Source: an uncultured Actinomycetes bacterium (GTDB taxonomy: Bacteria > Actinomycetota > Thermoleophilia > Gaiellales > JAICJC01). From it: a stretch of DNA of 64,000 nucleotides. The stretch lies in the NCBI GenBank assembly GCA_963737445.1, contig CAVTSO010000013.1, positions 24,756 through 88,755 on the forward strand. Direction: 5' to 3'. The notes beneath the pieces were generated by a model, which was not told the DNA's origin, searched no databases, and saw only the letters and a program-made list of their open reading frames with translations. The stretch's first letter is position 1. Each line of letters begins with the position of its first letter. The position numbers and the translations under genes were made by a program. This document shows positions 6,813 through 23,955 of the stretch, piece by piece.

Positions 6813-7135
6813 GTGCTCCCGAGCTGTCGGCAACCGACGTGGCGGCCGCGCTGGAGCGCGGCGAGCTGGCCGCCGTCGACGTGCGCGAGCCGGGCGAGTG
6901 GGACGCCGGTCACATTACCGACGCGCTCTGGATCCCGATGGGCGAGTTCGCCGACCGCGTCTCGGAGCTGCCGGAAGGGCGGCTGGCGATCGTCTGCCGC
7001 AGCGGCGCACGCAGCGGGGTGGTGGCAGACTGGCTGGAGCGGTCCGGGGTCGATGCCGTCAACCTGGCCGGTGGCATGCAGGCCTGGCACGCCGCCTCGC
7101 TGCCGATCGAACCGGTGGACGGCTGGATCGCGTGA
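6809..7135 (+). CDS. single-domain rhodanese sulfurtransferase
   Basis: DVREPGEWDAGHI...LAIVCRSGARSG active-site loop. The ATG at 6809 overlaps the upstream stop (ATGA). Confidence 0.8.
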   Translation: MSAPELSATDVAAALERGELAAVDVREPGEWDAGHITDALWIPMGEFADRVSELPEGRLAIVCRSGARSGVVADWLERSGVDAVNLAGGMQAWHAASLPIEPVDGWIA

Positions 7136-8040
7136 GCGTGCGGGTGGGCACCTGCTCCTGGGCGGACGAATCGCTCAGCAAGCTTTGGTACCCGCCCGGT
7201 GTCGGCTCGGCCGAGGCGCGCCTGCGCTGGTACGCGGAGCATTTCGACACGGTCGAGGTCAACTCCAGCTACTACGCCCTGCCCACCGAGGAGATGGCGA
7301 CCGCCTGGGCGCAACGTACGCCGCCCGGGTTCGTGTTCCACGTCAAGGCGTTCGGGATGATGACCCGCCACCCGGTGCGGGTCGAGCAGCTGCCGCCGGA
7401 CATGCGCTCGGAGGCCGAGTTCGACGAGCGGGGCCGGATCGACCGCCCCTCACGGGAGCTGCGAAGCGCGGTTTTCCGGCGCTTCCTGCGCGCCGTCGAG
7501 CCCCTGCGTGAGGCCGGGAAGCTGGGCGGCGTGCTGATGCAGCTGCCCCAATACGTGGTCTTCAAGCCGTCGTCGTTCGCCTATCTGGAGTGGGCGCGGG
7601 AGCAGCTCACCGATCATCACATGCTGGTCGAGTTTCGCCACCGCAGCTGGCTCACCGACGAGCACCGCGAGCAGACGCTGGCCTTCCTGGAGCGGCTGCC
7701 GGCCACCTACGTGATCGTCGACGCACCGCGGGTGACGTCGGACAACGTCGCTCCCACCGTCGTCGCGCGCACGTCGGACACCGCCTACCTGCGGCTGCAC
7801 GGGCGCAACGCGGCGACCTGGAACGCTCGTGGCGGCGGCGCCGCGAAGCGGTTCGACCACCTCTACTCGCAGGACGAGCTCGCGGAGTGGGTGGGGCCGC
7901 TGCGGGAGCTGGCCGGCTGCGCCCGCGAGGTGTTCGCGATGTTCAACAACAACGGCCGCAGCACCGACGTCAACGGCAATCCATTCGCCCAGGCACCGGC
8001 CAACGCCGCTCAGCTGCTGGAGCTGCTGAAGGAGTCATAG
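7132..8040 (+). CDS. DUF72 family protein
   Basis: VRVGTCSWADESL...WYAEHFDTVEVNSSYYALP is the typical DUF72 N-terminus. The GTG at 7132 overlaps the rhodanese stop (GTGA). Confidence 0.8.
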   Translation: MSVRVGTCSWADESLSKLWYPPGVGSAEARLRWYAEHFDTVEVNSSYYALPTEEMATAWAQRTPPGFVFHVKAFGMMTRHPVRVEQLPPDMRSEAEFDERGRIDRPSRELRSAVFRRFLRAVEPLREAGKLGGVLMQLPQYVVFKPSSFAYLEWAREQLTDHHMLVEFRHRSWLTDEHREQTLAFLERLPATYVIVDAPRVTSDNVAPTVVARTSDTAYLRLHGRNAATWNARGGGAAKRFDHLYSQDELAEWVGPLRELAGCAREVFAMFNNNGRSTDVNGNPFAQAPANAAQLLELLKES

Positions 8041-8289: not shown

Positions 8290-10311
8290 TTGACTGTCTC
8301 GATGACCGACCAGACGGTGCTGACCACCTGCCCGCGGGATTGCTACGATGCCTGCGGCATCCTCGTCACCGTCCGGAACGGCGCCATCCGGTCAGTGCGG
8401 GGCGACCCCGACCACCCGGTCAGCCGCGGCAAGCTCTGCCGCAAGTGCTCGATCGGCTACAACGGCGTGTACCTCGATCCGCAGGCGCGGCTGACCACAC
8501 CGCTGCGCCGGGTGGGCGCCAAGGGCGAGGGCCGGTTCACGCCGGTCAGCTGGGACGAGGCGATGGCCGAGATCGCATCGCGCTGGCGTGCGATCATCGA
8601 CGAGACCGGCCCTGACGCGATCCTGAACGCCCACTACACGGGCACCTGCTCGGTGATCGCGTTCGCCTTCGGCTCGCGGTTCTTCCGGCGGCTGGGTGCA
8701 ACCGAGGTCGACCCCGACTCGGTCTGCAACAAGGCCGGCCACGTCGCGCTCGACTACATGTACGGCAGCTCCGTGAACGGCTTCGATCCGCGCAGCGCGC
8801 GGGATGCGGAGTGCATCGTGGTGTGGGGCGCGAACCCCTCGGCATCGGCTCCGCATGCCCACGACCACTGGCTTCCGGAGGCGCCCGGCACGGTGATCGT
8901 GATCGACTCGATCCGCACGCCGACGGCGCAGCAGGCCGACCTGCACCTGCAGCCGTTCCCCGGCAGCGACGCGGCGCTGGCGTTCGCGATGCTGCACGTG
9001 ATCGTGCGCGACGGGCTGGCCGACCGGGAGCTGCTCGAGCGCCACGCGATCGGGTGGGACGAGCTGGAGCCGCAGCTCGAGGCGTGCACGCCGGAGTGGG
9101 CGGAGCCGGTGACCGGCGTGCCGGCGCAGCTGGTCGAGCGGGCGGCGGCGATCTACGGTCGCGGGCCGTCGCTGCTCTGGATCGGCCAGGGCCTGCAGCG
9201 CCAGTCCACCGGCGGGAACGTGATGCGGGCGGTGGCGCTGCTGCCGGCCGTGAGCGGCAACCTGGCCAAGCCCGGGGCCGGGTTCCTGTACCTCAACGAT
9301 CGCTTCGAGATCGACGAGGACTGGCTGGCGGCGCCGCAGCTGGGCGATTCGCCGGAGCCGATCAGCCACATGGACCTGGCCGCACGGCTCGAGCATCCGG
9401 CGCGCAGCCGCAGCCTCTTTTGCTGGAACATCAACATCGCCGCGTCCAACCCCGAGCAGACCAGGCTGCTGGCCGCGCTCGCCCGTGAGGACCTGTTCAC
9501 AGTGGTGGTCGACCTGTTCGCGACCGACACGGGCGACTACGCCGACCTGCTGCTGCCGGCCGCGAGCTTCCTGGAGTTCGACGACCTGGTCGCGTCCTAC
9601 TTCGACCTATCGTTGTCGGCACAGGTGAAGGTGGTCGACCCGGTCGGAGAGGCGCTGTCGAACCAGGAGATCTTCCGCCGGCTGGCGACCGCGATGGGCT
9701 TCACCGAGCCGGAGCTGCACGCTGGCGACCGCGAGATGATCGACGCTATGCTGGCCCAGTCCGGCGTGATCGAAAGCTTCGAGCAGCTGGCGGCGGTGGG
9801 CACGGTGCCGCTGGCGGCGGAGCCGGTGGTGCAGTTCGCCGACCTCGAGTTCGAGACGCCCAGCGGCCGCATCGAGATCGCCTCCGCCGCGGCCGAGGCG
9901 GACGGCCATCCGCGGCTGCCACAGCCTTGGAGCGATCCACGGCCGGCCGCCGGACGTCTGCGGCTGCTGTCGCCGGCCTCGCCCTGGCTGATGAACGACA
10001 GCTTCGCGAACGATCGCAAGATCACGAAGCGGATCGGCCGGCCGAGCGTGACGCTGCACCCGGCCGACGCCGCCAGCCGCGGCCTCGGCGAGGGCGACAT
10101 GGCGCGGCTGTCCAACGCATCCGGCGCGCTCGAGCTGGCGGTGACGGTGTCGGACATCGTGCCGCAGGGAGTGGCCTATTCACCCAAGGGCCGGTGGCTC
10201 AAGCGGGAGCAGCAGCAGGCGAACGTGAACGTCCTGAACGACGGCCGCAAGGCCGACTTCGGCGCCAGCACGTCGGTGCATGGGGTCGAGGTCACCGTCG
10301 AACGGGTTTAG
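8290..10311 (+). CDS. molybdopterin (bis-MGD) oxidoreductase, DMSO reductase superfamily, cytoplasmic type
   Basis: N-terminal Fe-S motif CPRDCYDACG, molybdopterin oxidoreductase core, and a C-terminal molydopterin dinucleotide-binding domain. I saw no Tat signal. The start may be TTG 8290 or ATG 8302. Confidence 0.85.
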   Translation: MTVSMTDQTVLTTCPRDCYDACGILVTVRNGAIRSVRGDPDHPVSRGKLCRKCSIGYNGVYLDPQARLTTPLRRVGAKGEGRFTPVSWDEAMAEIASRWRAIIDETGPDAILNAHYTGTCSVIAFAFGSRFFRRLGATEVDPDSVCNKAGHVALDYMYGSSVNGFDPRSARDAECIVVWGANPSASAPHAHDHWLPEAPGTVIVIDSIRTPTAQQADLHLQPFPGSDAALAFAMLHVIVRDGLADRELLERHAIGWDELEPQLEACTPEWAEPVTGVPAQLVERAAAIYGRGPSLLWIGQGLQRQSTGGNVMRAVALLPAVSGNLAKPGAGFLYLNDRFEIDEDWLAAPQLGDSPEPISHMDLAARLEHPARSRSLFCWNINIAASNPEQTRLLAALAREDLFTVVVDLFATDTGDYADLLLPAASFLEFDDLVASYFDLSLSAQVKVVDPVGEALSNQEIFRRLATAMGFTEPELHAGDREMIDAMLAQSGVIESFEQLAAVGTVPLAAEPVVQFADLEFETPSGRIEIASAAAEADGHPRLPQPWSDPRPAAGRLRLLSPASPWLMNDSFANDRKITKRIGRPSVTLHPADAASRGLGEGDMARLSNASGALELAVTVSDIVPQGVAYSPKGRWLKREQQQANVNVLNDGRKADFGASTSVHGVEVTVERV

Positions 10312-10724: not shown

Positions 10725-11120
10725 TCATCGCCGTTGCAGCGCCCGGCGAAGCGCGGATCGTTGGTCGGCGAGCTCCACCACGGCGCAACGGAGCCGCTGT
10801 TCGCCTTCGGCCGTCAAGGAGAGCACGGCGGATCGCCGATCCGATGGGTCTTGCGCCTTTTCGACAAGGCCAGCATCGACGCAGCGGGACACAAGGTCTG
10901 AGAGTGTGTTGTGGGGCATCGCGAGGCGCTCGGCCATGGACGTTATTGTCGCCGATTCGCTTCCGTCGGGCGCGCCTTTGATCATCAGTAGCAGGAGGTA
11001 GCGCTGCGGCGTGAGCCGGCACCGGCGCACGACCTTGGCGGTGTCCGCGTCAAAATGGCGAAGGGCGGAGCGGAATCGGGCGACATCCAGAGCCTGCTCC
11101 AGATACGCCCGGTCAGACAT
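10725..11120 (-). CDS. MarR family transcriptional regulator
   Basis: LTPQRYLLLLMIKG...ITSMAERLAMPHNTLSDLVSRCVDAGLVEKAQDPSDRRSAVLSLTAEGE. Confidence 0.85.
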   Translation of the reverse strand: MSDRAYLEQALDVARFRSALRHFDADTAKVVRRCRLTPQRYLLLLMIKGAPDGSESATITSMAERLAMPHNTLSDLVSRCVDAGLVEKAQDPSDRRSAVLSLTAEGEQRLRCAVVELADQRSALRRALQRR

Positions 11121-11564: not shown

Positions 11565-11825
11565 TCACCAGCCCGGCACCCTGTCCGTCGACCCGTTGGC
11601 CCCCGAGGGTGCAGCCGCGCCCGCCCAGATCGCCTTTCGCCTGAATCGACCCTGGCTGATCATCACACTCGACCCACACCGGCCACAGCGCCAGGTTGGG
11701 ACGCCGCCAAGGTCACCTCCCGGCGCGAAATCTGCGTTCAGGTGCCCGCGAAGGCCGCACATCGGACAGGAGATCCGGACTTGACGTGCTGGGGACTTGC
11801 CGTCACGAAACAGGATCGTGTCCAC
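11565..11825 (-). CDS. hypothetical small zinc-ribbon protein (CPMC...CGRC)
   Basis: This is the only ORF with protein-like features in an otherwise gene-poor ~1 kb stretch. It has a GTG start and I recognised no family. Confidence 0.25.
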   Translation of the reverse strand: MDTILFRDGKSPARQVRISCPMCGLRGHLNADFAPGGDLGGVPTWRCGRCGSSVMISQGRFRRKAIWAGAAAPSGANGSTDRVPGW

Positions 11826-12107: not shown

Positions 12108-12998
12108 TCAGGCTCGTCGCCCAGCAGGCGGTTCCGACCGCGAAAGCAGTTCGCCGCTGCGACCGTATCTGACCGCCCGGGCGACCCGGTCCGCGGGTAG
12201 TCCGGCGTCGGTCAGCGCGTCGCCGATCTCGCCCTCTCGAAGCCATTTCAGGAACAGCCATGCGAACAGCACGATCGTGACGATGCTGCCCTCCGTCAGC
12301 ATGACGATGCCTGCCAGATTTTGATCCTCCAGCGGTCCGATGCCCCAGAGCCGTGGACGGATCGCCGCGTAGTAGGTGAAGAACACGGTGTGCGACCACA
12401 TGAACGCGAACGCCAGCACGGTGTCGATGAAGCGGACGCCGAGGATGTAGAGCAGCTTGATGCCCGAGCCGAACCACCGGGGCCCGGGGAGCGGTTCGAG
12501 CAAGGCTGACCACAGCAAGATGCCGCAGGCGATGAAGCAGCCGTGCTCGACCGCATGAATCGCATCGTTGCGAAGCGCGGCCTGGTAGGGGCCGGGAAGA
12601 TGCCACGCGTAGAGATCGGCGGCCCACACCGGCAAGGCAACCAGTGGGTGTGCGAGCGCACGCAGCCGTCCCGCCATGGGCAGGGCAAGCACCGGCCTCA
12701 AGAGGGCTCCGTCCAGCCCCGCGACGATTAGCAGGGGACCGATGTCGCCCAGCAGGATGTGTTGCACCATATGCACCATGAAGAGGCGGTGCTCGCCGAT
12801 CCAATCGATCGGCGACACCAAGGCGAGCAGCACAATCGCTAGGCCCGAGAGGAAGCAAGCAACTCGCCAGGTCGGCACGGGATGTCCGCGCGCACGGATC
12901 GTCGCCGCGCGCCGCAGATACAACATGGCGACAGCGACCGCAGGCACGACGTCGAGCGGCTGGAACGTCCACACCCAGACGGAACTCAAGAGCGCCAT
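12108..12998 (-). CDS. cytochrome c oxidase assembly factor CtaG-like (Caa3_CtaG family) membrane protein
   Basis: Polytopic membrane protein with the family-typical HMVQHILLGDIGPLLIVAGL and later HAVEHGCF segments. Confidence 0.7.
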   Translation of the reverse strand: MALLSSVWVWTFQPLDVVPAVAVAMLYLRRAATIRARGHPVPTWRVACFLSGLAIVLLALVSPIDWIGEHRLFMVHMVQHILLGDIGPLLIVAGLDGALLRPVLALPMAGRLRALAHPLVALPVWAADLYAWHLPGPYQAALRNDAIHAVEHGCFIACGILLWSALLEPLPGPRWFGSGIKLLYILGVRFIDTVLAFAFMWSHTVFFTYYAAIRPRLWGIGPLEDQNLAGIVMLTEGSIVTIVLFAWLFLKWLREGEIGDALTDAGLPADRVARAVRYGRSGELLSRSEPPAGRRA

Positions 12999-13267
12999 GA
13001 GCCGCCGCTACCCTCGGGTTGTGAGACGAGCTCGTTCCACCCGCCCCGCGTACTCACGTACGAGTGGCGACCGAATGGCCGCCAGACCTCGATACGGCGA
13101 TTCCAATGGCGTCTCATACCGGTTGGGTTCAACCCATCGCGATCAAGCCCACCCAAAGCTGGCGAACACTGATGAGCCTCACCGCGTCGGGGAGATCTTT
13201 CGCCGATACCGGTGGTCGGCCATCTCATGGCACAAGCACAGACGGGCGTGCGCTCACGTTGGCCAAG

Positions 13268-13286
13268 TATACCGTAATACGGTATA
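13268..13286. promoter_or_regulatory. AT-rich 19-bp palindrome TATACCGTA-a-TACGGTATA upstream of the CtaG-like gene
   Basis: Perfect 9-bp arms, read directly. It lies in the 330-bp gap between two same-strand genes, ~270 bp upstream of the CtaG-like start. Confidence 0.35.
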
Positions 13287-13328
13287 AATCGTCAGCTTCT
13301 CCAAGCCGGGTTGCAGATGCGATCATCA

Positions 13329-14372
13329 TCAGTGCGTCGGCTGCTCGCGGGGCGCGCGCTTGCGTGCCGCAAGATGCCGCGGGTTGACGCGCTGCTGGGG
13401 GGCAACGGCGAGGACGAAGCAGAGCATCGCGCCGATGCCGCAGGCTAGCGACACCGAGGCGGCCGACCGTTCCACCGGGGCCGGCATGGCGGCCATGACG
13501 TATCCGTGTGTGAGCGTGGGTAACAGCACCAGACCCTGGTACAGGCCGAATGCGCCGACCATGAAGCTGGTGAACGGGCGTACGTTTGACCGGACGAATG
13601 CCACCAGGGCGAGCAGCGCCAGTACCACGGTCAAGGCGAGATCCACGCGCTGCCAGGCCGATACGTCCGGATGGCCGTACAGCTCGCGACCGATCCTGCC
13701 GGCCGCCACCGCCGCCACGGTCAGCAGAGCCAGGAGCGCCCCTAGCCTCTGGATGATGCGTTGGTCGCGCGCGCGGATCAGCGCGGCCAGGCAGACCAGG
13801 CAGACCACGGTCGGCCAGAACCACAGCAGCGACGGATCGGCCGCCCGCCAGAGCTGCCCGCTGATTACGTGCTTGGCCCCATTAATCGTGAGCGGTACCG
13901 TCCATGGCCCCACGTCGCCTGCGGCGGCGTTTGGCGACGAGAGGGCCAGCGTGTGCAACCGGTCCTCGTGCCACATGTAGCTGTGTGAGTCGGTCATGTG
14001 CTTCCATGAGGGAGGCGCCGTGGCGTCGGTGCCCTTAGGCGCCGCAATTGGCGTCGCCCGGTTCAGGTAGGTAGTGGGCGAGCGGATGTTTTCGTCAACG
14101 CCGGCCTGGTTAAAGCGCAGGTACGGCTCGCCGAACCGGCCCACCACGATCACGCTCAGCACCGGGTTCACGCTCATCCACAATCGTTGATCGCCGTCGA
14201 CCACGCGCACGGCGATGCCTGGAGGAACCGCGTCGACCTTCGCGAGAAAGCTCGTGGCGACGGGATCGGTGTGTCCCGCGTGGGCGGATGCGGCCGCCGG
14301 CTCTAGCGCCGGCGCGGCGAGGATGCCCGCCACGACCGCGCAACGCAGGGTCCAGCGGGCGGCCAGACTCAA
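13329..14372 (-). CDS. membrane protein: signal peptide, periplasmic domain and 4-5 C-terminal TM helices (function unknown)
   Basis: The TTG start at 14372 overlaps the upstream stop (TTGA). Signal peptide LSLAARWTLRCAVVAGILAAPALEPAAASAHA. The tracked 472-aa ORF's N-terminal extension overlaps the upstream gene and was discarded. Confidence 0.6.
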   Translation of the reverse strand: MSLAARWTLRCAVVAGILAAPALEPAAASAHAGHTDPVATSFLAKVDAVPPGIAVRVVDGDQRLWMSVNPVLSVIVVGRFGEPYLRFNQAGVDENIRSPTTYLNRATPIAAPKGTDATAPPSWKHMTDSHSYMWHEDRLHTLALSSPNAAAGDVGPWTVPLTINGAKHVISGQLWRAADPSLLWFWPTVVCLVCLAALIRARDQRIIQRLGALLALLTVAAVAAGRIGRELYGHPDVSAWQRVDLALTVVLALLALVAFVRSNVRPFTSFMVGAFGLYQGLVLLPTLTHGYVMAAMPAPVERSAASVSLACGIGAMLCFVLAVAPQQRVNPRHLAARKRAPREQPTH

Positions 14373-15769
14373 GCTGGCTCCAGTCGTCGCACGCCGCGGA
14401 TCAAGGAGCCGACCGTGAAGGGGTAGGGGATCACCTGGCGTTCGTCCCCGTTGCGGTCGATCAGATACACCAACTCGGTGTGGGAGATCTCGTGCACCAC
14501 CTGCCCCTCCAGCGTCATCCGTTTCACCTGCACGCCGATCTTGTAGGCGCGCCACACTTGCGCCAGTTGCGCGTGCGACCCGACCGCCCAGCGCCACTGG
14601 TCGCCGACCTGCCAGTTGCGGACGTCTTGAATGAGGTGGGACTGTGCATTGCCCCAGGGATTCACGCTCACCGCCACAACGGCCGGTTTGCTTCGGGCCG
14701 GCAGTCGCCGCTCCATGTCGCCGATCAGGCTGGCTTCCAGCGGACACAGGTTTCGGCAGACGGGATCGACGAACGCCAGGATGACGACGCGGCCGCGGAG
14801 GGCGCGAAGAGAGACCGGCCGGCCTAGCTGGTCACGGAGTGTGAACGGCGGCGCTGGACGCGTTCCGGCCGGCCACGTAAACCCATCGATGCTGGAGGAT
14901 GAGGTGAGCGATCGTGACGCGCCGGTAGACATGTGCGCGGGCAAGAACACCGCTGCGGCGCCACCTGCGATCACGGCGACTGGCACCCCCACCATAAGAA
15001 AGGTCGCAAGTGGAGTCGGACGCCTCAGCTGTGCGGTGAGCCGGCTCGCGGCACGCGCCAGCCGCGCCGCCCGGGCCCGGGGCAACCAGGGCGGTGGTCG
15101 CAGGCGCAGACTGACCGTCCACGCCGCCACGATCAGGATGATGCCGACGCCGAGCACGGCGTCACGAAGCAGATTGAACCCGCCCGCCGGATTCGGCCGG
15201 CTCCGCGCCGTGTCCATTGGCGCAGCCCCGCCGGCCGGTAGCGGATGCCCAGCCGCCGAGGCCAGGGCGCGGACCGCGTTGCCCGCTGCCTTCACCAAAC
15301 CCCCCACGCCCCTGGGGATCGCGATGCCTTGCAGGGCCGCCTGCTTGCTCGTCACCGGCCGCTTTCCGTCGTAGACGCCGAACCCGTTCGGCATCACCAC
15401 CAGCAACGGACCGTGGTAGACGTATGACAACTCGGCCCCTAGGAACCGGGCATACGGCTGTGGCTTTCGCCACAGCGGTGTAATGGAGCCCAGGTCGTAG
15501 GCTGAGCTGATGACGGCGACCTTGATCGGGGCGCCAGCGCGGGTGGACATGGCCACTAGCTGGGCTAGCTGCGCACGCTCGGCCGCCGGCGCGCTGGGCG
15601 TCAGGAACACAGACTGCGAGAACAAGTAGTCGCTGGCCGGGTCGCCGTCGGCGCGTGCGACGGCAGGCGACCAAACGGCCGAAGCGGCGAGCGCGATCAC
15701 AGCGGTCACCAGCGCAAGCCCACTGGCGGCGGCGCGACGGTGCCGTCTCGATGCCGCGGCGTGGCTCAT
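14369..15769 (-). CDS. fusion protein: N-terminal exported domain of unknown function, TM segments, and a C-terminal SCO1/SenC-type thioredoxin-like domain
   Basis: I chose the start MSHAAASRRHRR at 15769. The C-terminal domain has the SCO-type motif ILAFVDPVCRNLCPLE (CxxxC) and a downstream conserved His (HTELVYLID). Confidence 0.7.
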   Translation of the reverse strand: MSHAAASRRHRRAAASGLALVTAVIALAASAVWSPAVARADGDPASDYLFSQSVFLTPSAPAAERAQLAQLVAMSTRAGAPIKVAVISSAYDLGSITPLWRKPQPYARFLGAELSYVYHGPLLVVMPNGFGVYDGKRPVTSKQAALQGIAIPRGVGGLVKAAGNAVRALASAAGHPLPAGGAAPMDTARSRPNPAGGFNLLRDAVLGVGIILIVAAWTVSLRLRPPPWLPRARAARLARAASRLTAQLRRPTPLATFLMVGVPVAVIAGGAAAVFLPAHMSTGASRSLTSSSSIDGFTWPAGTRPAPPFTLRDQLGRPVSLRALRGRVVILAFVDPVCRNLCPLEASLIGDMERRLPARSKPAVVAVSVNPWGNAQSHLIQDVRNWQVGDQWRWAVGSHAQLAQVWRAYKIGVQVKRMTLEGQVVHEISHTELVYLIDRNGDERQVIPYPFTVGSLIRGVRRLEPA

Positions 15770-15948
15770 CCGTGCCTCGGGAAGCCGTAGTTGTCGTGCG
15801 GAGGCACGAACCTGGCCACTTCGATCACGATCTCTTCGTGCTCGAACAAAACCGATGCGGGCCGGCAGCGCCACGCCGAGCCGTTCACGAAGACCCGTAC
15901 GCGGCGACGGAAACCGAGCACGCGGCGTGCCGTGAGCGCATTCCACAC
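15766..15948 (-). CDS. possible small ORF (60 aa), or the true C-terminus of the upstream DyP gene in another frame
   Basis: Its stop overlaps the ATG of the SCO-like gene (ATGA), and GC at third codon positions looks coding-like. I recognised no family. It overlaps the tail of ORF 15885..17288. Confidence 0.25.
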   Translation of the reverse strand: MWNALTARRVLGFRRRVRVFVNGSAWRCRPASVLFEHEEIVIEVARFVPPHDNYGFPRHG

Positions 15949-17219
15949 GGCGAAGAGCCGCCGCCGGCATGGGCCGGGGACCTTGAGGCATCGCTTCCCC
16001 CCACCAGAGGGAACGCCCTGTCTCTTCGCGGCGGCACCGCATAGTTTCCTCGCCGCTCCACGAAGATGAAATCATTGATGCCATTGTTGACCGTCTCGGT
16101 GATGGCCGGGTTCATGTACGGTGCCCTGGCCGCGTTCATGGCACGGCGCGTGGCCACGAAGTCGTCGATCGTCCGCTGCAGCGACACGAAGTGCAGGCCG
16201 GCCTGTCCGCCGTCAACGGTGTTGAAGTCGCGGCGCAGGATACGCGGGCGGCCATTGACTCGGGCGCGCGCCGACGCCTGGGCATGGCCGACCACGCCCA
16301 ACCGGCGCGCGGCCTCGGCCAAGCGATGGGGGTGTGAGGGGGCGTCAACGGTGAACGCGCGGGCCCGCGCCAGCGTGACCTGAGGAGCATACATGCGCGC
16401 CACCCGCCCCGGCTCGTCCAGGAGCCGGTACCAGTCGTCAAGCTGCAGCCGCATATAGCTCACGTGCATCGTGGTGCCCCCGGCCATCACGCCCTCGCGG
16501 ATCGTCACGCCAGGCTCGGTCGCCTGGTTGCGACGCAGCCCGGATCGGAAGCCCATGAACAGCGGCGCGGCCGCGGGCACGACGTTTCCGGCCGGAACGC
16601 CGGCCACTCCCTGGTGCGACGCGGGCAGTCCCGGCCCCACGAACCCGGTACGCGTCTCTCGCCAGTGCAGCACGCCACGCAGGTCGAGCTCGTCGGCCAC
16701 GCCGGCAATCGGCTCGCCCCTCACCAGTGCGGCTTCGACGGCGTCCAGTCGGCCCGGCTCGTCGCAGGCAAGGTGCAGGCAAACGTCGTACTCGTCCAGG
16801 ATGGGCAGCTCGAAGCTCGACAGCGACTCCGCCGGTGGTACTGGAGAGGGCACCCCGAGCCATGAGCGGAAGTAGTGATGCCCCCACGCGACCGCGAATA
16901 GCAGGCCCGACGGCGACCACCGGTAGCGGCGCTCGAGCGCCCGCAGCGCCTGCTCGAGGCGATCGGCTGCCGACCCTGACGGCGGGCCGGCAAGGTCGAA
17001 GAACAGGAGCCGGGCGTGGCTTGGTGGCACGACGTTCCCGTCCACGTCGCGGCGCAGCGGCGCCTCCCACGCGTGCTGTGCGGCGGGCAGGCCGTGCGGC
17101 TGGGGGCCCAACCGCACGGCCTGGCGGCGACGGCCGACGACGTCGGCGACGCCGGCACCGGCGGTCGGCGCCATAGCGGACGCGGCCGCACTCGCCAACA
17201 GCCGTCTGCGCGTCAGCAC
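15885..17219 (-). CDS. Tat-exported DyP-type (EfeB-like) haem peroxidase
   Basis: Twin-arginine signal LTRRRLLASAAAS. DyP-like C-terminal region GLHFVSLQRTIDDFV...NDFIFVERRGNYAVPP. I chose the GTG start at 17219, 4 nt after the upstream stop. The last ~45 aa look low-complexity. Confidence 0.75.
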   Translation of the reverse strand: MLTRRRLLASAAASAMAPTAGAGVADVVGRRRQAVRLGPQPHGLPAAQHAWEAPLRRDVDGNVVPPSHARLLFFDLAGPPSGSAADRLEQALRALERRYRWSPSGLLFAVAWGHHYFRSWLGVPSPVPPAESLSSFELPILDEYDVCLHLACDEPGRLDAVEAALVRGEPIAGVADELDLRGVLHWRETRTGFVGPGLPASHQGVAGVPAGNVVPAAAPLFMGFRSGLRRNQATEPGVTIREGVMAGGTTMHVSYMRLQLDDWYRLLDEPGRVARMYAPQVTLARARAFTVDAPSHPHRLAEAARRLGVVGHAQASARARVNGRPRILRRDFNTVDGGQAGLHFVSLQRTIDDFVATRRAMNAARAPYMNPAITETVNNGINDFIFVERRGNYAVPPRRDRAFPLVGGSDASRSPAHAGGGSSPCGMRSRHAACSVSVAAYGSS

Positions 17220-17223
17220 GCCG

Positions 17224-17841
17224 TCACATCCCCGGCTTCCAGTGGAAGGTGAGCCTGACACGGTGGGGATGCAGCCACACATGCGCATACTCGAGGTGCC
17301 GCGCCGATTCCGGCGGTCCTATAAGCAGGTCAAGCACGTAGCGACCGGCTCCCGGCAAGGCGACGTTGTTCCCGTAATGGACACCCATGCTACGCGACAG
17401 CATCGGCCACTGGCGTGCGTCGTAGACGATCCGGTCATCCTGGCGGATGGTCGCCCACACGGTCGCGTAGGGAATCGGCATGCCGGTTCGCGCGTCGGTC
17501 AGCATAACCATCAGGTGCATGCTGGCCTTCGCGGCGGGGTGGATCGTCCGCTCCGACGTCCCGGTCACGACCACGAACGTCGCCGGCGCGGTCGCCCGCG
17601 CCTGGATGCGCATGCCCTGCCATACCGCCTGGCCAAGCGGGACGATCGGCATGGCCGACATCCCATTCGAGCCGCCGGCGCTCGACCCGACACCGGACAT
17701 GCCGGACATGCCGGACATGCCAGCGTTGCCGGATGAGCCCAGCGACGTGTTCCCGGCCGCCGCGCCGCTGCTGCCACATCCTGCGGACAGCGCAAACAGC
17801 ACCGCCACGCACACTTCCCACCGCACGTCATTCCACCGCAT
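17224..17841 (-). CDS. lipoprotein of the P19/FetP/Tp34 periplasmic Fe/Cu-binding family, with a Met/Gly/Ser-rich linker
   Basis: Lipobox LFALSAGC. The core MHLMVMLTDARTGMPIPYATVWATI...MLSRSMGVHYGNNVALPGAGRYVLDLLIGPP resembles the PF10634-type iron transport proteins. Confidence 0.65.
   Translation of the reverse strand: MRWNDVRWEVCVAVLFALSAGCGSSGAAAGNTSLGSSGNAGMSGMSGMSGVGSSAGGSNGMSAMPIVPLGQAVWQGMRIQARATAPATFVVVTGTSERTIHPAAKASMHLMVMLTDARTGMPIPYATVWATIRQDDRIVYDARQWPMLSRSMGVHYGNNVALPGAGRYVLDLLIGPPESARHLEYAHVWLHPHRVRLTFHWKPGM
17693..17719. repeat. perfect 9-bp tandem repeat CCGGACATG x3, encoding (GMS)3 in the P19-like linker
   Basis: Read directly from the sequence. Confidence 0.9.
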
Positions 17842-17943: not shown

Positions 17944-18522
17944 CTACAAGGAGGGCAGTGGCACCGGCGGGGCACGGCTGCGCGGCCCCCCAGCGGGTGG
18001 TCGCAGCCGGGGCTCGTGAAGACAGGGTGCGCGGCGCGCCGCGCGGGCGCCTAGGAGCAGCGCCAGGGCGCGGGCGACGGCCTGCGCGACCGCATCTGCA
18101 GCCCCGCCCACGATCCGTCCGACCAGCGCGACGACAAGCGCACCGGCGATCGCCAGCAGCAGGTGAAGCGCGAGGCTGCCCGACGACCCGGTGTGCGCCG
18201 ACACCCCCGCCGATAGCAACGCTACGTGCGCACAGGCCTGGCAGGCCAGCATGACCCCGACCAGCGCCGAGAACCGGATCTCCTCTGCGACATCCGCCGG
18301 GCCGGCCGAGAGCGCCCGCTCGACGTCCACGACGCTTCGCCACAAAGTGACCGCAAACCACAGCGCGACCATGAGTGCTGCCAGTGCGAGTACCGCGCCG
18401 ACCGCCGCCGCCGCCAGCCATCTGCGGTCGACGATACCGGCCGGCCCAGCATGAGCGAACACAGCCCCGACCGCCGACAGCCCCACGATCGCGCCCGCCT
18501 GAACGACCCTTATAAGTCGCAT
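17944..18522 (-). CDS. hypothetical integral membrane protein
   Basis: I chose the MRLIRVVQAG start at 18522, because the longer ORF would run into the tRNA-Glu gene. Several hydrophobic helices are present. No family recognised. Confidence 0.4.
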   Translation of the reverse strand: MRLIRVVQAGAIVGLSAVGAVFAHAGPAGIVDRRWLAAAAVGAVLALAALMVALWFAVTLWRSVVDVERALSAGPADVAEEIRFSALVGVMLACQACAHVALLSAGVSAHTGSSGSLALHLLLAIAGALVVALVGRIVGGAADAVAQAVARALALLLGARAARRAPCLHEPRLRPPAGGPRSRAPPVPLPSL

Positions 18523-18690
18523 CACGACGCAGTATGCCACGGGTTCACAGGCCCTCCAAGGTGGGAGCAGAGGCATGGCCGGTCGGTCGCCGGCTCCGGT
18601 AACCGCGCTGAGCGCGGCACCGCCCATCGTCAACTCGTTTACTTTCCATGCGTTCACGACTGAAGGGTTCGTGCGTGTCGTCCGGGGAAG

Positions 18691-18763
18691 TACCCCCAAC
18701 GGGATTCGAACCCGTGTTGCCGCCTTGAAAGGGCGGAGGCCTAGGCCGCTAGCCGATGGGGGC
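18691..18763 (-). tRNA. tRNA-Glu (anticodon UUC)
   Basis: The reverse complement is GCCCCCATCGGCTAGCGGCCTAGGCCTCCGCCCTTTCAAGGCGGCAACACGGGTTCGAATCCCGTTGGGGGTA. It folds into a cloverleaf with a CTTTCAA anticodon loop. CCA is not encoded. Confidence 0.9.
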
Positions 18764-19087: not shown

Positions 19088-19160
19088 GGGCCGTTAGCTC
19101 AGCTGGTAGAGCAGGGGACTTTTAATCCCAAGGTCGCAGGTTCGATCCCTGCACGGCCCA
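19088..19160 (+). tRNA. tRNA-Lys (anticodon UUU)
   Basis: GGGCCGTTAGCTCAGCTGGTAGAGCAGGGGACTTTTAATCCCAAGGTCGCAGGTTCGATCCCTGCACGGCCCA. Canonical arms are present. CCA is not encoded. Confidence 0.9.
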
Positions 19161-20691: not shown

Positions 20692-21002
20692 GGCGGGCAC
20701 GACCGGCCCGCGGGCTGGGGACTGTCGGTGCCCGCCGCCAGCTTGAGCGTCGACGGCGTGGTCGTGGTAAGCCGCAGCGGCTGCGGAACGCACCCAGAGG
20801 ATCGAGCAGGTGCGCCTCGGCCCCACCAGCGGCCTCGTCGGCGGCTCGGCCGGTGTTCTGTACTTCGACGACTTCGTCTCCACCCGCACCGCCACCATCG
20901 GACCCTGACCGCAGCGATCGGGAGAACCGATCCCGCCCCGCTTCCGAATGGGCACGCAAACCGGCGGCAGATGCCGCCCGCAGCCCTCAGAAAGGGGTCA
21001 CG

Positions 21003-21791
21003 ATGACAGACATGATGGATCGGACGCTGACGCGAGCGTCACTAATCCGAGGCGGCGCCGCCGCGGGTGTCGGGCTCGCGGTGGGTGGCCTCACGGGTGT
21101 GGCGCCGTCGTTTGCGTCGGGAGCCACCCAGGGCGACGTCGACATCCTGATCGCCGCCGAGATCGCCGAGGCACTGGCGGTCACGACGTACTCCAACATC
21201 ATCTTCAACGCGCCATTCTTCACGCGCCTTGCGGACGACGATCAGGGGTATCTGCGGGCGGCACGCCAGGAGGAAATGTCGCATTACCTGCTGGAGAAGT
21301 CGGCAACCGGCAAGGACTCGCCGTACACCGCGTTCTTCTATCCGCACCACATGTTCCACAACGCCCGCGTGACGCTCAACACGCTGGTCTCGCTGGAGGA
21401 CGCCTTCATCGCCGCCTACCTGGTCGGCGTCCGTGACTTCTCGAGTGCCGACCTGCGCGTGACCGCCGCTCGCATCATGGGGATCGAGAGCGACCATCGC
21501 ACGCTGGCACGCGTCGTCGCACCCGGCGTCGCGCCCAGGGACCGGGGCCCGATCGAGCGTGTGAAGGGCATCCAGGGCGTCCGCGAGTCCGTCGACCCGC
21601 CCAACAACAACGGCTACGAGCGCACGCTCGGCCTCACCAACATCAGCCAGGCCGTCCACGCGCTGCTCCCGTTCGTCGATGCCTCGGCCGCGGCCAAGGC
21701 CGGGTTCAACACCCGGACGGCGTTCAAGTTCCATCCGTTCACGCCCCACCTGCCCACCCAGCTGGGCGCGTTCCACAGCTTCGCCGGTTGA
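21003..21791 (+). CDS. exported ferritin-like domain protein
   Basis: The ATG at 21003 follows GAAAGGGG. An N-terminal signal-like region is followed by DVDILIAAEIAEALAVTTY...EEMSHYLLEK (Ferritin_2-like di-iron helices). Confidence 0.7.
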   Translation: MTDMMDRTLTRASLIRGGAAAGVGLAVGGLTGVAPSFASGATQGDVDILIAAEIAEALAVTTYSNIIFNAPFFTRLADDDQGYLRAARQEEMSHYLLEKSATGKDSPYTAFFYPHHMFHNARVTLNTLVSLEDAFIAAYLVGVRDFSSADLRVTAARIMGIESDHRTLARVVAPGVAPRDRGPIERVKGIQGVRESVDPPNNNGYERTLGLTNISQAVHALLPFVDASAAAKAGFNTRTAFKFHPFTPHLPTQLGAFHSFAG

Positions 21792-23211: not shown

Positions 23212-23955
23212 CTATTTCCGGGAATCGCGTTCGCCGACCATCAGCTGCTCGAGCCGCCTGGCCATCCGCGGCCCCGCGGCCGAGTCCTCGTGCTTGAAGT
23301 AGCAGTAGACGTCGCTGCCGTCGTCCAGCGCAGCCTGGATCCGCCCGGCCCACACGTCGAGCTCGGAGTCGCTGTAGGCAGCGCGTCGCAGTCGCAGGTA
23401 TCCGAACGGCTGCCACACCAGCTCGTCCCCGCGGGCAGCGGCGTCGTCTGTGTCGGCAACACAGCGTGCTATCTGCCGCTCGGCCAGGAATGGCCAGGCT
23501 GCACGCCAGCTGGGGTGGCGGAACTCCATCACCGCCCCGATCCCCGGCGGCAGCCCGTCGGCGAGCGCCGCCAGCAGCGGCTCGTCGTACTCCACGGTCG
23601 GCGGGCACTGGAACAGGACCGGTCCCAGCCGGTCTCCGAGCACGGCCGCCTCGTTCATGAACGCGCGCACCTCCCCGGCCACGCCGCGCAGCCGTCGCAC
23701 GTGCGTGATCCGCTGATTGGCCTTGAGGGTGAACCGAAACCCTTCCGGCGTCTGCTGGAGCCACGAGGTGAGCACCTTCTGCGACGGAAACTTGCGGAAC
23801 GTGTAGTTGATCTCGACCGACCGAAAGATCGTTGCATAGTACGACAACATGCGCGAGGCGGGCAGACCCTCCGGGTAGAAGACGCCGTGGCGCCACTCGT
23901 CGTACCCGAACCCGGAGGTGCCGAGGTAGAGCGTTCCGGCCATGGCTGGCATCAT
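23212..23955 (-). CDS. DUF72 family protein (second paralog)
   Basis: GTLYLGTSGFGYDEWRHGVFYPEGL...YYATIFRSVEINYTFRKFP is the typical DUF72 N-terminus. Confidence 0.8.
   Translation of the reverse strand: MMPAMAGTLYLGTSGFGYDEWRHGVFYPEGLPASRMLSYYATIFRSVEINYTFRKFPSQKVLTSWLQQTPEGFRFTLKANQRITHVRRLRGVAGEVRAFMNEAAVLGDRLGPVLFQCPPTVEYDEPLLAALADGLPPGIGAVMEFRHPSWRAAWPFLAERQIARCVADTDDAAARGDELVWQPFGYLRLRRAAYSDSELDVWAGRIQAALDDGSDVYCYFKHEDSAAGPRMARRLEQLMVGERDSRK

Follow-up and report, generated by a model that had tools for sequence, protein, structure and literature searches.

A putative extracytoplasmic copper-trafficking operon in an uncultured Gaiellales bacterium joins a P19-like lipoprotein and a DUF7405 protein to a Sco fusion

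Results

Composition of the cluster

We examined a 64,000-nt stretch of contig CAVTSO010000013.1 (assembly GCA_963737445.1, positions 24,756 to 88,755; hereafter the window) from an uncultured bacterium of the Gaiellales, ~70% in G+C, within which a cluster of minus-strand genes runs from ~18522 down to 12108 (Table 1). Five of these genes, numbered g1 to g5 in 5′ to 3′ order, had been described in an earlier sequence-only reading as a hybrid of iron and copper systems: a P19/FetP-like lipoprotein, a secreted peroxidase, a Sco fusion, an uncharacterised membrane protein and a CtaG-like protein, with no iron permease. All five open reading frames (ORFs) occur at the coordinates then given, and proteins identical to their products, with the same start positions, are on public record; the nearest homologues belong to metagenome-assembled genomes of Solirubrobacterales and Gaiellales. 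A sixth intact gene precedes g1, and the probable remnant of another lies between g2 and g3. We regard the cluster, which is conserved in soil actinobacteria, as probably an extracytoplasmic copper-trafficking operon and not an iron-uptake system minus its permease, a reading that we favour without holding it firmly.

Table 1 Features of the cluster and of its upstream border (window coordinates)
Feature	Coordinates	Strand	Remarks
tRNA-Lys(TTT)	19088..19160	+	directly upstream of the cluster
tRNA-Glu(TTC)	18690..18763	-	directly upstream of the cluster
Small membrane protein	17944..18522	-	~192 aa, start inferred; upstream of g1
g1, P19/FetP/FtrA-like lipoprotein	17224..17841	-	Pfam Iron_transport and DUF7350
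g2, Tat-signal DUF7405 protein	15885..17219	-	Pfam DUF7405
c5 relic (probable)	15766..15948	-	match to the C-terminal part of the c5 profile
g3, Sco fusion	14369..15769	-	Pfam SCO1-SenC in the C-terminal third
g4, uncharacterised membrane protein	13329..14372	-	no Pfam or NCBIfam match
Palindrome	13268..13286	strand-neutral	in the g4-g5 spacer
g5, Caa3_CtaG-family integral membrane protein	12108..12998	-	Pfam PF09678

The P19-like lipoprotein

The product of g1 carries a lipobox-like motif (LSAGC) and falls in the P19/FetP family by profile search, as had been supposed: it scores 35 bits against Pfam Iron_transport/P19 (PF10634, cut-off 21) and 30.8 bits against DUF7350 (cut-off 27), a family for which a literature search returned no papers, and sequence searches of the PDB matched FtrA (8vv5, 2.4e-6) and FetP (3nrp, 1.8e-4). 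Aligned with the PDB sequence, H109, M147 and H155 of g1 coincide with H44, M90 and H97 of FetP, which are reportedly its copper ligands together with a C-terminal His that the partner subunit contributes (Koch 2011, Chan 2010). Among 72 g1 homologues taken from the related loci described below, the three residues are each invariant in 70–72, as (or nearly so) are H182 and H193, both of which are candidates for the C-terminal His of the copper site.

The second metal site of P19 is acidic, binds Mn2+ as an analogue of iron and is built from Glu3, Glu44, Asp46 and Asp92 (PMC9174327). Three of these four residues could be aligned, and none is kept in g1: P19 E44, D46 and D92 (E46, D48 and D94 in FetP) are replaced by M111, M113 and M152, with methionine at these positions in 71, 56 and 70 of the 72 homologues, respectively. 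Furthermore, the Gly/Ser linker that follows the lipobox Cys contains 6.3% Met against a background of 1.5%, a four-fold enrichment, arranged in MxM and MxxM repeats of the types MSGMSGMSG, MAGMNM and MEGMEGME. By alignment, then, the g1 family retains the copper site of P19 and has exchanged the iron carboxylates for methionine thioethers, so that the former iron site presents a ligand set expected of Cu(I) and not of Fe(III). We propose that g1 is an extracytoplasmic copper-binding protein, the metal being read from its predicted ligands.

The DUF7405 protein

g2 begins with a GTG codon 4 nt past the stop of g1, encodes a twin-arginine translocation (Tat) signal (TRRRLL) and matches Pfam DUF7405 (2.8e-103, 345.9 bits), for which a literature search likewise returned no papers. 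It had been read as a Tat-signal dye-decolorizing peroxidase (DyP) 4 nt after the lipoprotein; the Tat motif, the spacing and the superfamily were all confirmed, whereas the DyP label gives way to that of a DUF7405 protein without the catalytic Asp.

Membership of the DyP superfamily emerged at the level of profiles. The score of g2 itself against Pfam Dyp_perox_C is below threshold (17.6 bits, cut-off 20), although 31 of 35 close homologues do match this model (best 3.5e-6), and PDB searches with g2 alone or with a profile of close homologues found no DyP. An exhaustive DUF7405 profile search gave 596 clusters at 50% identity, and a profile of 32 diverse representatives matched TyrA 2hag (9.4e-6), 6qzo (1.4e-5) and 7pkx (6.5e-5) in the PDB, followed by EfeB 6kmm (1.5e-3) and DtpA 5map (7e-3). 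Aligned with E. coli EfeB by hhalign, the diverse profile reached 80% probability (E 1.4e-5, 331 columns), superseding a comparison with the close-homologue profile that was not significant (E 0.14).

Within these alignments G311-H312 and R329 are invariant in the 32 diverse and 35 close homologues alike; R329 aligns with the distal Arg of EfeB (R347), and H312 falls on the TyrA proximal His and, against EfeB, is off H329 by no more than a gap shift of 4 residues. The Asp of the GXXDG motif (EfeB Asp235) is lacking, its position being occupied by Ser226 in g2, by Ser in 27 of the 32 diverse members (A, T or M in the rest) and in 35 of the 35 close ones, and never by Asp or Glu. Profile-level DyP matches combined with an invariant His and Arg and no catalytic Asp mark DUF7405, on sequence grounds, as a divergent but real branch of the DyP superfamily, and we infer that g2 is a putative haem protein akin to EfeB and DtpA. 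Some DUF7405 representatives are 600–830 aa long and contain several matched stretches (P0425, P0435, P0476, P0503, P0508 and others), which indicates, as far as the profile matches go, fusions or tandem copies of the DyP-like domain.

The Sco fusion and its N-terminal domain

The 466-aa product of g3 ends in an SCO1/SenC fold with the motif CRNLC, a prediction now upheld by both sequence and structure searches. Pfam SCO1-SenC covers residues 307–441 (4e-13, 49.9 bits, cut-off 22.8), the AlphaFold2 (AF2) model (mean predicted local distance difference test score, pLDDT, 83) has as its best Foldseek matches ScoI (4wbj, 2.6e-12, target TM-score 0.83) and human SCO1, and neither C338-x3-C342 nor H430 varies among 56 homologues, as expected of a Sco chaperone.

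Upstream of the Sco domain, a cleavable signal leaves DGDPASD as the mature N-terminus of a ~140-residue alpha/beta ectodomain (~residues 41–180) that is strongly conserved, with this motif, in more than 500 homologues of similar length. In the predicted topology the N-domain and the Sco domain would both be extracytoplasmic, separated by a membrane hairpin of two helices whose cytoplasmic loop is rich in Arg. A profile of the N-domain found nothing in the PDB or Pfam beyond a chance-level match to Rv1476 in 2 of 20 members, and Foldseek with the full g3 model returned Sco and thioredoxin-fold matches, none of them to the N-domain; to call it TPM-like would be a guess. Its earlier description as novel thus stands in the sense of an unannotated domain, and one that recurs with the system. 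The same domain is found without Sco, as proteins of 230–270 aa, in many related loci. A module beside g2 in L017, L022, L029, L047, L050, L053 and other loci combines such a standalone N-domain protein with g4 and often with an unannotated lipoprotein family (c5), partly in divergent orientation; unlike this arrangement, the window has the N-domain fused to Sco and c5 decayed.

The membrane protein g4

g4 has a TTG start, overlaps g3 by TTGA and encodes a signal peptide, an ectodomain and 4–5 transmembrane helices; the overlap, the signal peptide and the helices agree with the sequence-only reading, which had also called it uncharacterised; none of 121 homologues has a Pfam domain, and the family recurs with the system. 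The AF2 model (pLDDT 90, predicted template modelling score 0.80) shows a beta-sandwich ectodomain and a bundle of 4–5 helices, with no Foldseek match in the PDB at E<=0.001. At least 90% of 52 homologues keep the signal-peptidase motif A-x-A, directly followed by H31, and the same holds for H135, whereas W134 and R138 do not vary at all; predicted cleavage would leave His31 as the mature N-terminus.

In YcnI and CopC, signal-peptide cleavage exposes a Cu(II)-binding N-terminal His (PMC8424229). By analogy, the N-terminal His of g4 suggests a Cu(II) site of the histidine-brace type, and we propose that g4 may bind Cu(II) and act in the membrane as a partner of Sco. Membership of the YcnI/DUF1775 family was considered and is not supported, given no Pfam match to DUF1775 and an hhalign of the ectodomain with YcnI sequences from sister loci that aligns 7 columns, and thus no detectable homology; what g4 shares with the YcnI type, namely an exposed N-terminal His and a conserved Trp, speaks for a similar mode of action and not for family membership.

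Distant homologues of g4 also occur in copper operons of cultured actinobacteria. In Blastococcus (L086) such a gene accompanies an extracytoplasmic function (ECF) sigma factor, an anti-sigma factor, CopC-CopD, YcnI and Sco, and in two Micromonospora genomes (L085, L088) YcnI and CopC-CopD stand divergent from genes for a sigma factor, a MauE/DoxX protein, a DsbA-like protein and a g4-like protein. In these three loci the g4-like genes are translationally coupled to genes of thioredoxin-fold proteins (a DsbA-like one or Sco), which suggests that proteins with this fold generally have g4 as a partner in the copper operons of actinobacteria. The most distant match (P0246) has no copper context and may not truly belong to the family.

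Gene neighbourhoods and the absence of FTR1

To place the cluster among its relatives, we drew on a genome scan that yielded 80 loci, 79 of them non-redundant Thermoleophilia loci besides the window, whose ORFs were labelled with custom profiles. Synteny, whose conservation the sequence-only reading had named as a check, was traced through these loci: g1 lies directly upstream of g2 on the same strand in 63 of the 79, and a SCO gene is present within 6 kb in 45 (57%), far above chance for a gene with few copies per genome (~1% expected by our estimate). The g3 N-domain occurs within 6 kb in 49 loci and g4 in 34; three families without Pfam annotation, c0, c3 and c5, are found in 30, 27 and 18, respectively, CtaG (again within 6 kb) in 7, CopC-CopD in 6 and YcnI in 3. 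Fifty of the 79 loci contain one or more of the established copper families SCO, CtaG, CopC-CopD and YcnI.

Individual loci illustrate both constancy and exchange. In the nearest relative (L001, 73% g2 identity) the six genes follow one another in the order seen here, their stops and starts overlapping. Downstream of g2, L002 has YcnI and CopC-CopD-YtkA where the window has g3-g4-g5, and its Sco fusion stands upstream of the g1-g2 pair; L003 contains CopC, SCO and two CtaG genes.

The absence of an FTR1/EfeU-type permease with REXXE motifs, noted at the outset for the cluster, extends to its relatives: no FTR1-like ORF (two REXXE motifs and at least five hydrophobic segments) was found in the 80 loci, searched 9 kb to either side, or in the window, and among the called genes of the 64 kb no REXXE protein has at least four hydrophobic segments. 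None of the other large membrane proteins of the window is FTR1; they are one Fe-S/CCG, one DUF6541-like and one DUF7144 protein.

A sixth gene, a gene relic and the recurrent families c0, c3 and c5

The gene directly upstream of g1 encodes a protein that has ~4 hydrophobic segments, bears an R-A-P-P motif at its C-terminus and matches nothing in Pfam. Its start was placed at Met60 of a 251-aa ORF because the longer ORF would overlap tRNA-Glu. The protein is homologous to the one encoded upstream of the P19-like gene in L001 (phmmer 4e-29), and the gene is the first of the conserved cluster and its sixth intact member.

Elsewhere, the slot upstream of g1 holds members of the families c3 and c10, which have the C-terminal GRAPP/RAPP-type motif in common with this protein and are related to one another (hhalign, 97% probability). 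c3, a membrane protein of ~205 aa, carries GRAPP at its C-terminus. The family c0 is a very highly conserved polytopic protein of ~335 aa, without a Pfam match and with the motifs WWFGEAFGM and GQGFGGIFxGGATDPNAG; it is absent from the window, hhalign found no match between it and CtaG, c3 or g4, and it could be a transporter. Four-gene units c3-c0-g1-g2, with c3-c0 directly upstream of g1-g2, occur in L010, L016, L033, L036, L044, L058 and ~25 other loci.

The intact form of the third family, c5, is a ~210-aa lipobox protein with no Pfam match that adjoins g4 in its 18 loci. In the window, the 115 nt between g2 and g3 hold the C-terminal ~55 codons of a c5 gene: a short ORF, overlapping the 3′ end of g2 and stopping 4 nt within g3, matches positions 153–212 of the 214-position c5 profile (E 1.3e-17). 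Because the first ~150 codons are absent we read this ORF as a relic, on sequence evidence probably a pseudogene fragment. The relic accounts for the apparent 115-nt gap and for the length of g2, which at 444 aa exceeds its homologues (414–426 aa) by a C-terminal extension of ~30 residues read into it.

The CtaG-family gene, its spacer and the surroundings

g5 belongs to Pfam Caa3_CtaG (PF09678, 2.2e-51, 175 bits, cut-off 27.7), the family of the assembly factor for cytochrome oxidase found in Gram-positive bacteria, whereas against the NCBIfam equivalog of Bacillus CtaG (TIGR02737) it reaches 56 bits of the required 279. As first described, it follows g4 after a 330-bp spacer (12999–13328) with an AT-rich palindrome. 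The spacer is unique to this genome; in L001, g5 keeps the same position and order, and g4 and g5 overlap with no spacer. The palindrome is a perfect 9+1+9 repeat, TATACCGTA-T-TACGGTATA (in full TATACCGTATTACGGTATA), of a kind of which none is expected by chance (100 shuffles), and it was absent from the 84 related loci searched. It overlaps the -10 element of a promoter-like site that reads towards g5 and is the only such site in 7.5 kb; thus g5 perhaps has its own regulated promoter, with the palindrome as a possible operator, and assignment to a CsoR or MarR type would be a guess.

Past the end of g5, an otherwise gene-poor interval of ~1 kb separates it from a MarR-family gene (10725–11120) and holds an 86-aa ORF of uncertain coding status with a zinc-ribbon-like motif CPMCG...CGRCG (11565–11825, minus strand). 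Two DUF72 paralogues flank the cluster at ~5–10 kb (6898–8040, plus strand; 23212–23955, minus strand), and the vicinity also includes a Tat-less molybdopterin oxidoreductase (8290–10311) and a ferritin-like protein that bears a Tat-like signal (20853–21791). An Rfam scan returned the two upstream tRNAs (Table 1) and nothing else.

Discussion

Relation to characterised systems

The closest characterised analogue of the cluster is an operon of S. lividans composed of sco (SLI_4214), ecuc (SLI_4213), the putative copper transporter gene SLI_4212 and dtpA (SLI_4211), which encodes a Tat-exported DyP (PMC4736821). There, the DyP and Sco are required for maturation of the cuproenzyme GlxA and for full cytochrome oxidase activity, and copper addition rescues the defect; DtpA was proposed to oxidise Cu(I) bound to Sco, in an arrangement that the authors likened to efeUOB (PMC4736821). 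The architecture is the same in both, with co-directional genes for Sco, a second lipoprotein known or predicted to bind copper, a membrane protein of the copper-transport type and a Tat-exported DyP-type protein, yet the parts are not orthologous: our cluster has a P19/DUF7350-like lipoprotein in place of ECuC, a DUF7405 protein without the catalytic Asp in place of DtpA, and g4 and a CtaG-family protein in place of SLI_4212, its Sco bears an additional N-terminal ectodomain and membrane hairpin, and it includes an extra small membrane protein with the RAPP motif. Since S. lividans already joins Sco and a copper transporter to a Tat-DyP, iron-type and copper systems are not always separate, which qualifies the earlier premise that the cluster combines two normally separate systems.

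Likeness to the P19-cFtr1, FetMP and FtrABCD systems is confined to g1, a sequence homologue that keeps the His/Met/His copper positions; the acidic site, the FTR1 permease, the FtrB cupredoxin, the FtrD polyferredoxin and FetA-F are all missing, and a DyP-like partner is found instead. With EfeUOB and FepABC the cluster shares a Tat-exported DyP-superfamily gene beside a metal-binding lipoprotein, plausibly oxidising the partner's metal, whereas it differs in having neither EfeU nor EfeO/M75, in the remoteness of g2 from EfeB and its lack of Asp235, and in a metal that we take to be copper. Ultimately, the description of the cluster as an iron/copper hybrid is right in that relatives of iron-uptake proteins (P19-like and EfeB/DyP-like) are joined with Sco and CtaG, while its iron part is not supported, given the loss of the acidic site and the copper-handling neighbours.

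A further functional analogue would be the B. subtilis network of YcnJ (CopC-CopD-YtkA), YcnI, Sco and CtaG (PMC8424229, PMC13344008). Sco and a Caa3_CtaG-family protein are present here too, and g4, like YcnI, is a membrane-tethered beta-sandwich ectodomain in which cleavage would expose a conserved N-terminal His; g4 differs, however, in its lack of detectable YcnI or CopC homology and its 4–5 helix domain, g5 is not an equivalog of Bacillus CtaG by its TIGR02737 score, and no YcnK-type regulator was seen. The Gram-positive CtaG has been linked to CopD, and the roles of CtaG, YcnI and CopD in Gram-positive bacteria are actively debated (PMC13344008).

A proposed path for copper

If the cluster traffics copper, g1 would capture Cu(I) through its Met-rich linker and Met site, with the His/Met/His/His site holding copper. 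g2 would then oxidise Cu(I) to Cu(II), in parallel to the oxidation of Fe(II) by EfeB for EfeO and to the role proposed for DtpA with Sco-bound copper. The recipients of the Cu(II) would be the Sco domain of g3 and the sites of His type in g1 and g4. From there copper would be delivered, with the participation of g5, to a haem-copper oxidase or to other cuproenzymes. Both the direction of transfer and the target enzymes in this scheme are inferred.

Alternative readings

The main rival assigns the same proteins to defence against copper stress: g1 and g2 would oxidise and so detoxify extracytoplasmic Cu(I), much as CueO does with its Met-rich insert but in dependence on haem, and the task of sequestering the metal or moving it elsewhere would fall to Sco, g4 and CtaG-like or CopCD proteins. 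Met-rich motifs such as those of the g1 linker are typical of the copper-resistance proteins PcoC, CusF and CueO, ECF sigma and anti-sigma genes flank several related loci as well as the g4-like operons of Micromonospora and Blastococcus, and CopC-CopD is present in some loci. Nevertheless, Sco and Caa3_CtaG are assembly factors and not resistance determinants (PMC13344008, PMC4736821), and no P-type ATPase, CopZ, CsoR or multicopper oxidase appeared among the labelled recurrent neighbours and Pfam-annotated loci; we therefore consider detoxification rather unlikely, though it deserves the most serious attention among the alternatives.

Ferrous-iron uptake of the EfeUOB or FetMP type, in which a membrane protein (g4, or c0 elsewhere) replaces FTR1 and Sco and CtaG serve a cross-talk between iron and copper, is a good deal less probable still. 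Its appeal lies in the score of g1 above the Pfam P19/Iron_transport cut-off, in the relation of g2 to EfeB and in the uncharacterised polytopic membrane proteins conserved beside the g1-g2 pair; moreover, P19 and FetP reportedly require their copper site for iron transport (Chan et al. 2020). The role is made unlikely by the loss of the iron site, whose acidic residues are methionines family-wide, together with the consistent absence of FTR1-like proteins from all 80 loci. No Fur-type or iron-related neighbour was seen in these loci, where the neighbours are SCO, CopCD, YcnI and CtaG, and relatives of g4 occur in copper operons where, within the region viewed, neither a P19 nor a DyP gene is present. 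For a family without the acidic iron site, whose neighbours handle copper and never include FTR1, there is probably no iron permease to be missed, and it becomes unlikely that g4 fills such a vacancy.

It is more improbable again that the genes form no functional unit, being chance or rearranged neighbours in which g1 and g2 act on a non-metal substrate, for example a peroxidase substrate in the cell envelope. Rearrangement has evidently touched the locus, as the c5 relic and the unique 330-bp spacer indicate, and the genes that surround g1-g2 are arranged very differently from one relative to the next, but the six-gene order and overlapping stops and starts of L001 at 73% g2 identity, the adjacency of g1 and g2 in 63 of 79 loci and a SCO linkage of 57% against ~1% expected are not what chance would leave.

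Several points weigh against a copper-trafficking operon as well. The metal specificity of g1 is read from residue identities, the similarity of g2 to DyP is remote and the loss of its catalytic Asp could mean that it is perhaps no peroxidase at all, and the argument from the N-terminal His of g4 proceeds by analogy with a family to which no homology is detectable. The commonest immediate partners of the pair elsewhere are the membrane proteins c0 (30 loci) and c3 (27 loci), which could be transporters of another substrate. The 79 loci are close (56–73% identity) and phylogenetically narrow, so that linkage counts partly reflect shared ancestry, and the place of g5 in the unit is weaker because CtaG occurs in 7 of the 79 loci and a 330-bp spacer with a promoter-like site precedes the gene.

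Significance

An actinobacterial copper operon that couples Sco to a DyP was already known; what is new here is the exchange of an iron site for methionines, a DyP relative without the catalytic Asp and a set of copper-linked unannotated families. A P19 scaffold that keeps its copper site while its iron carboxylates become Met, paired with an Asp-less relative of DyP, would amount to a natural switch of metal specificity. We raise, as a tentative and less than probable extension, that DUF7350 and DUF7405 form an unrecognised copper counterpart of EfeO and EfeB, in which a Met-site Cu(I) receptor and a haem cuprous oxidase supply Cu(II) to the N-terminal-His class of g4 and to Sco, and that with the g3 N-domain, c5, c0 and c3 they make up a new actinobacterial pathway for loading cuproenzymes.

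Copper acquisition and oxidase loading in Gram-positive bacteria are still poorly resolved. Should Cu(I) indeed be oxidised to Cu(II) as proposed, the hypothesis advanced for Streptomyces DtpA would reach a different and widespread pair of proteins. DUF7405 and DUF7350, both families of unknown function, gain a testable role. As many as five families without annotation, namely g4, the Sco N-domain, c5, c0 and c3/c10, become candidates for copper homeostasis, and the g4 family extends to the cultured and genetically tractable genera Micromonospora and Blastococcus.

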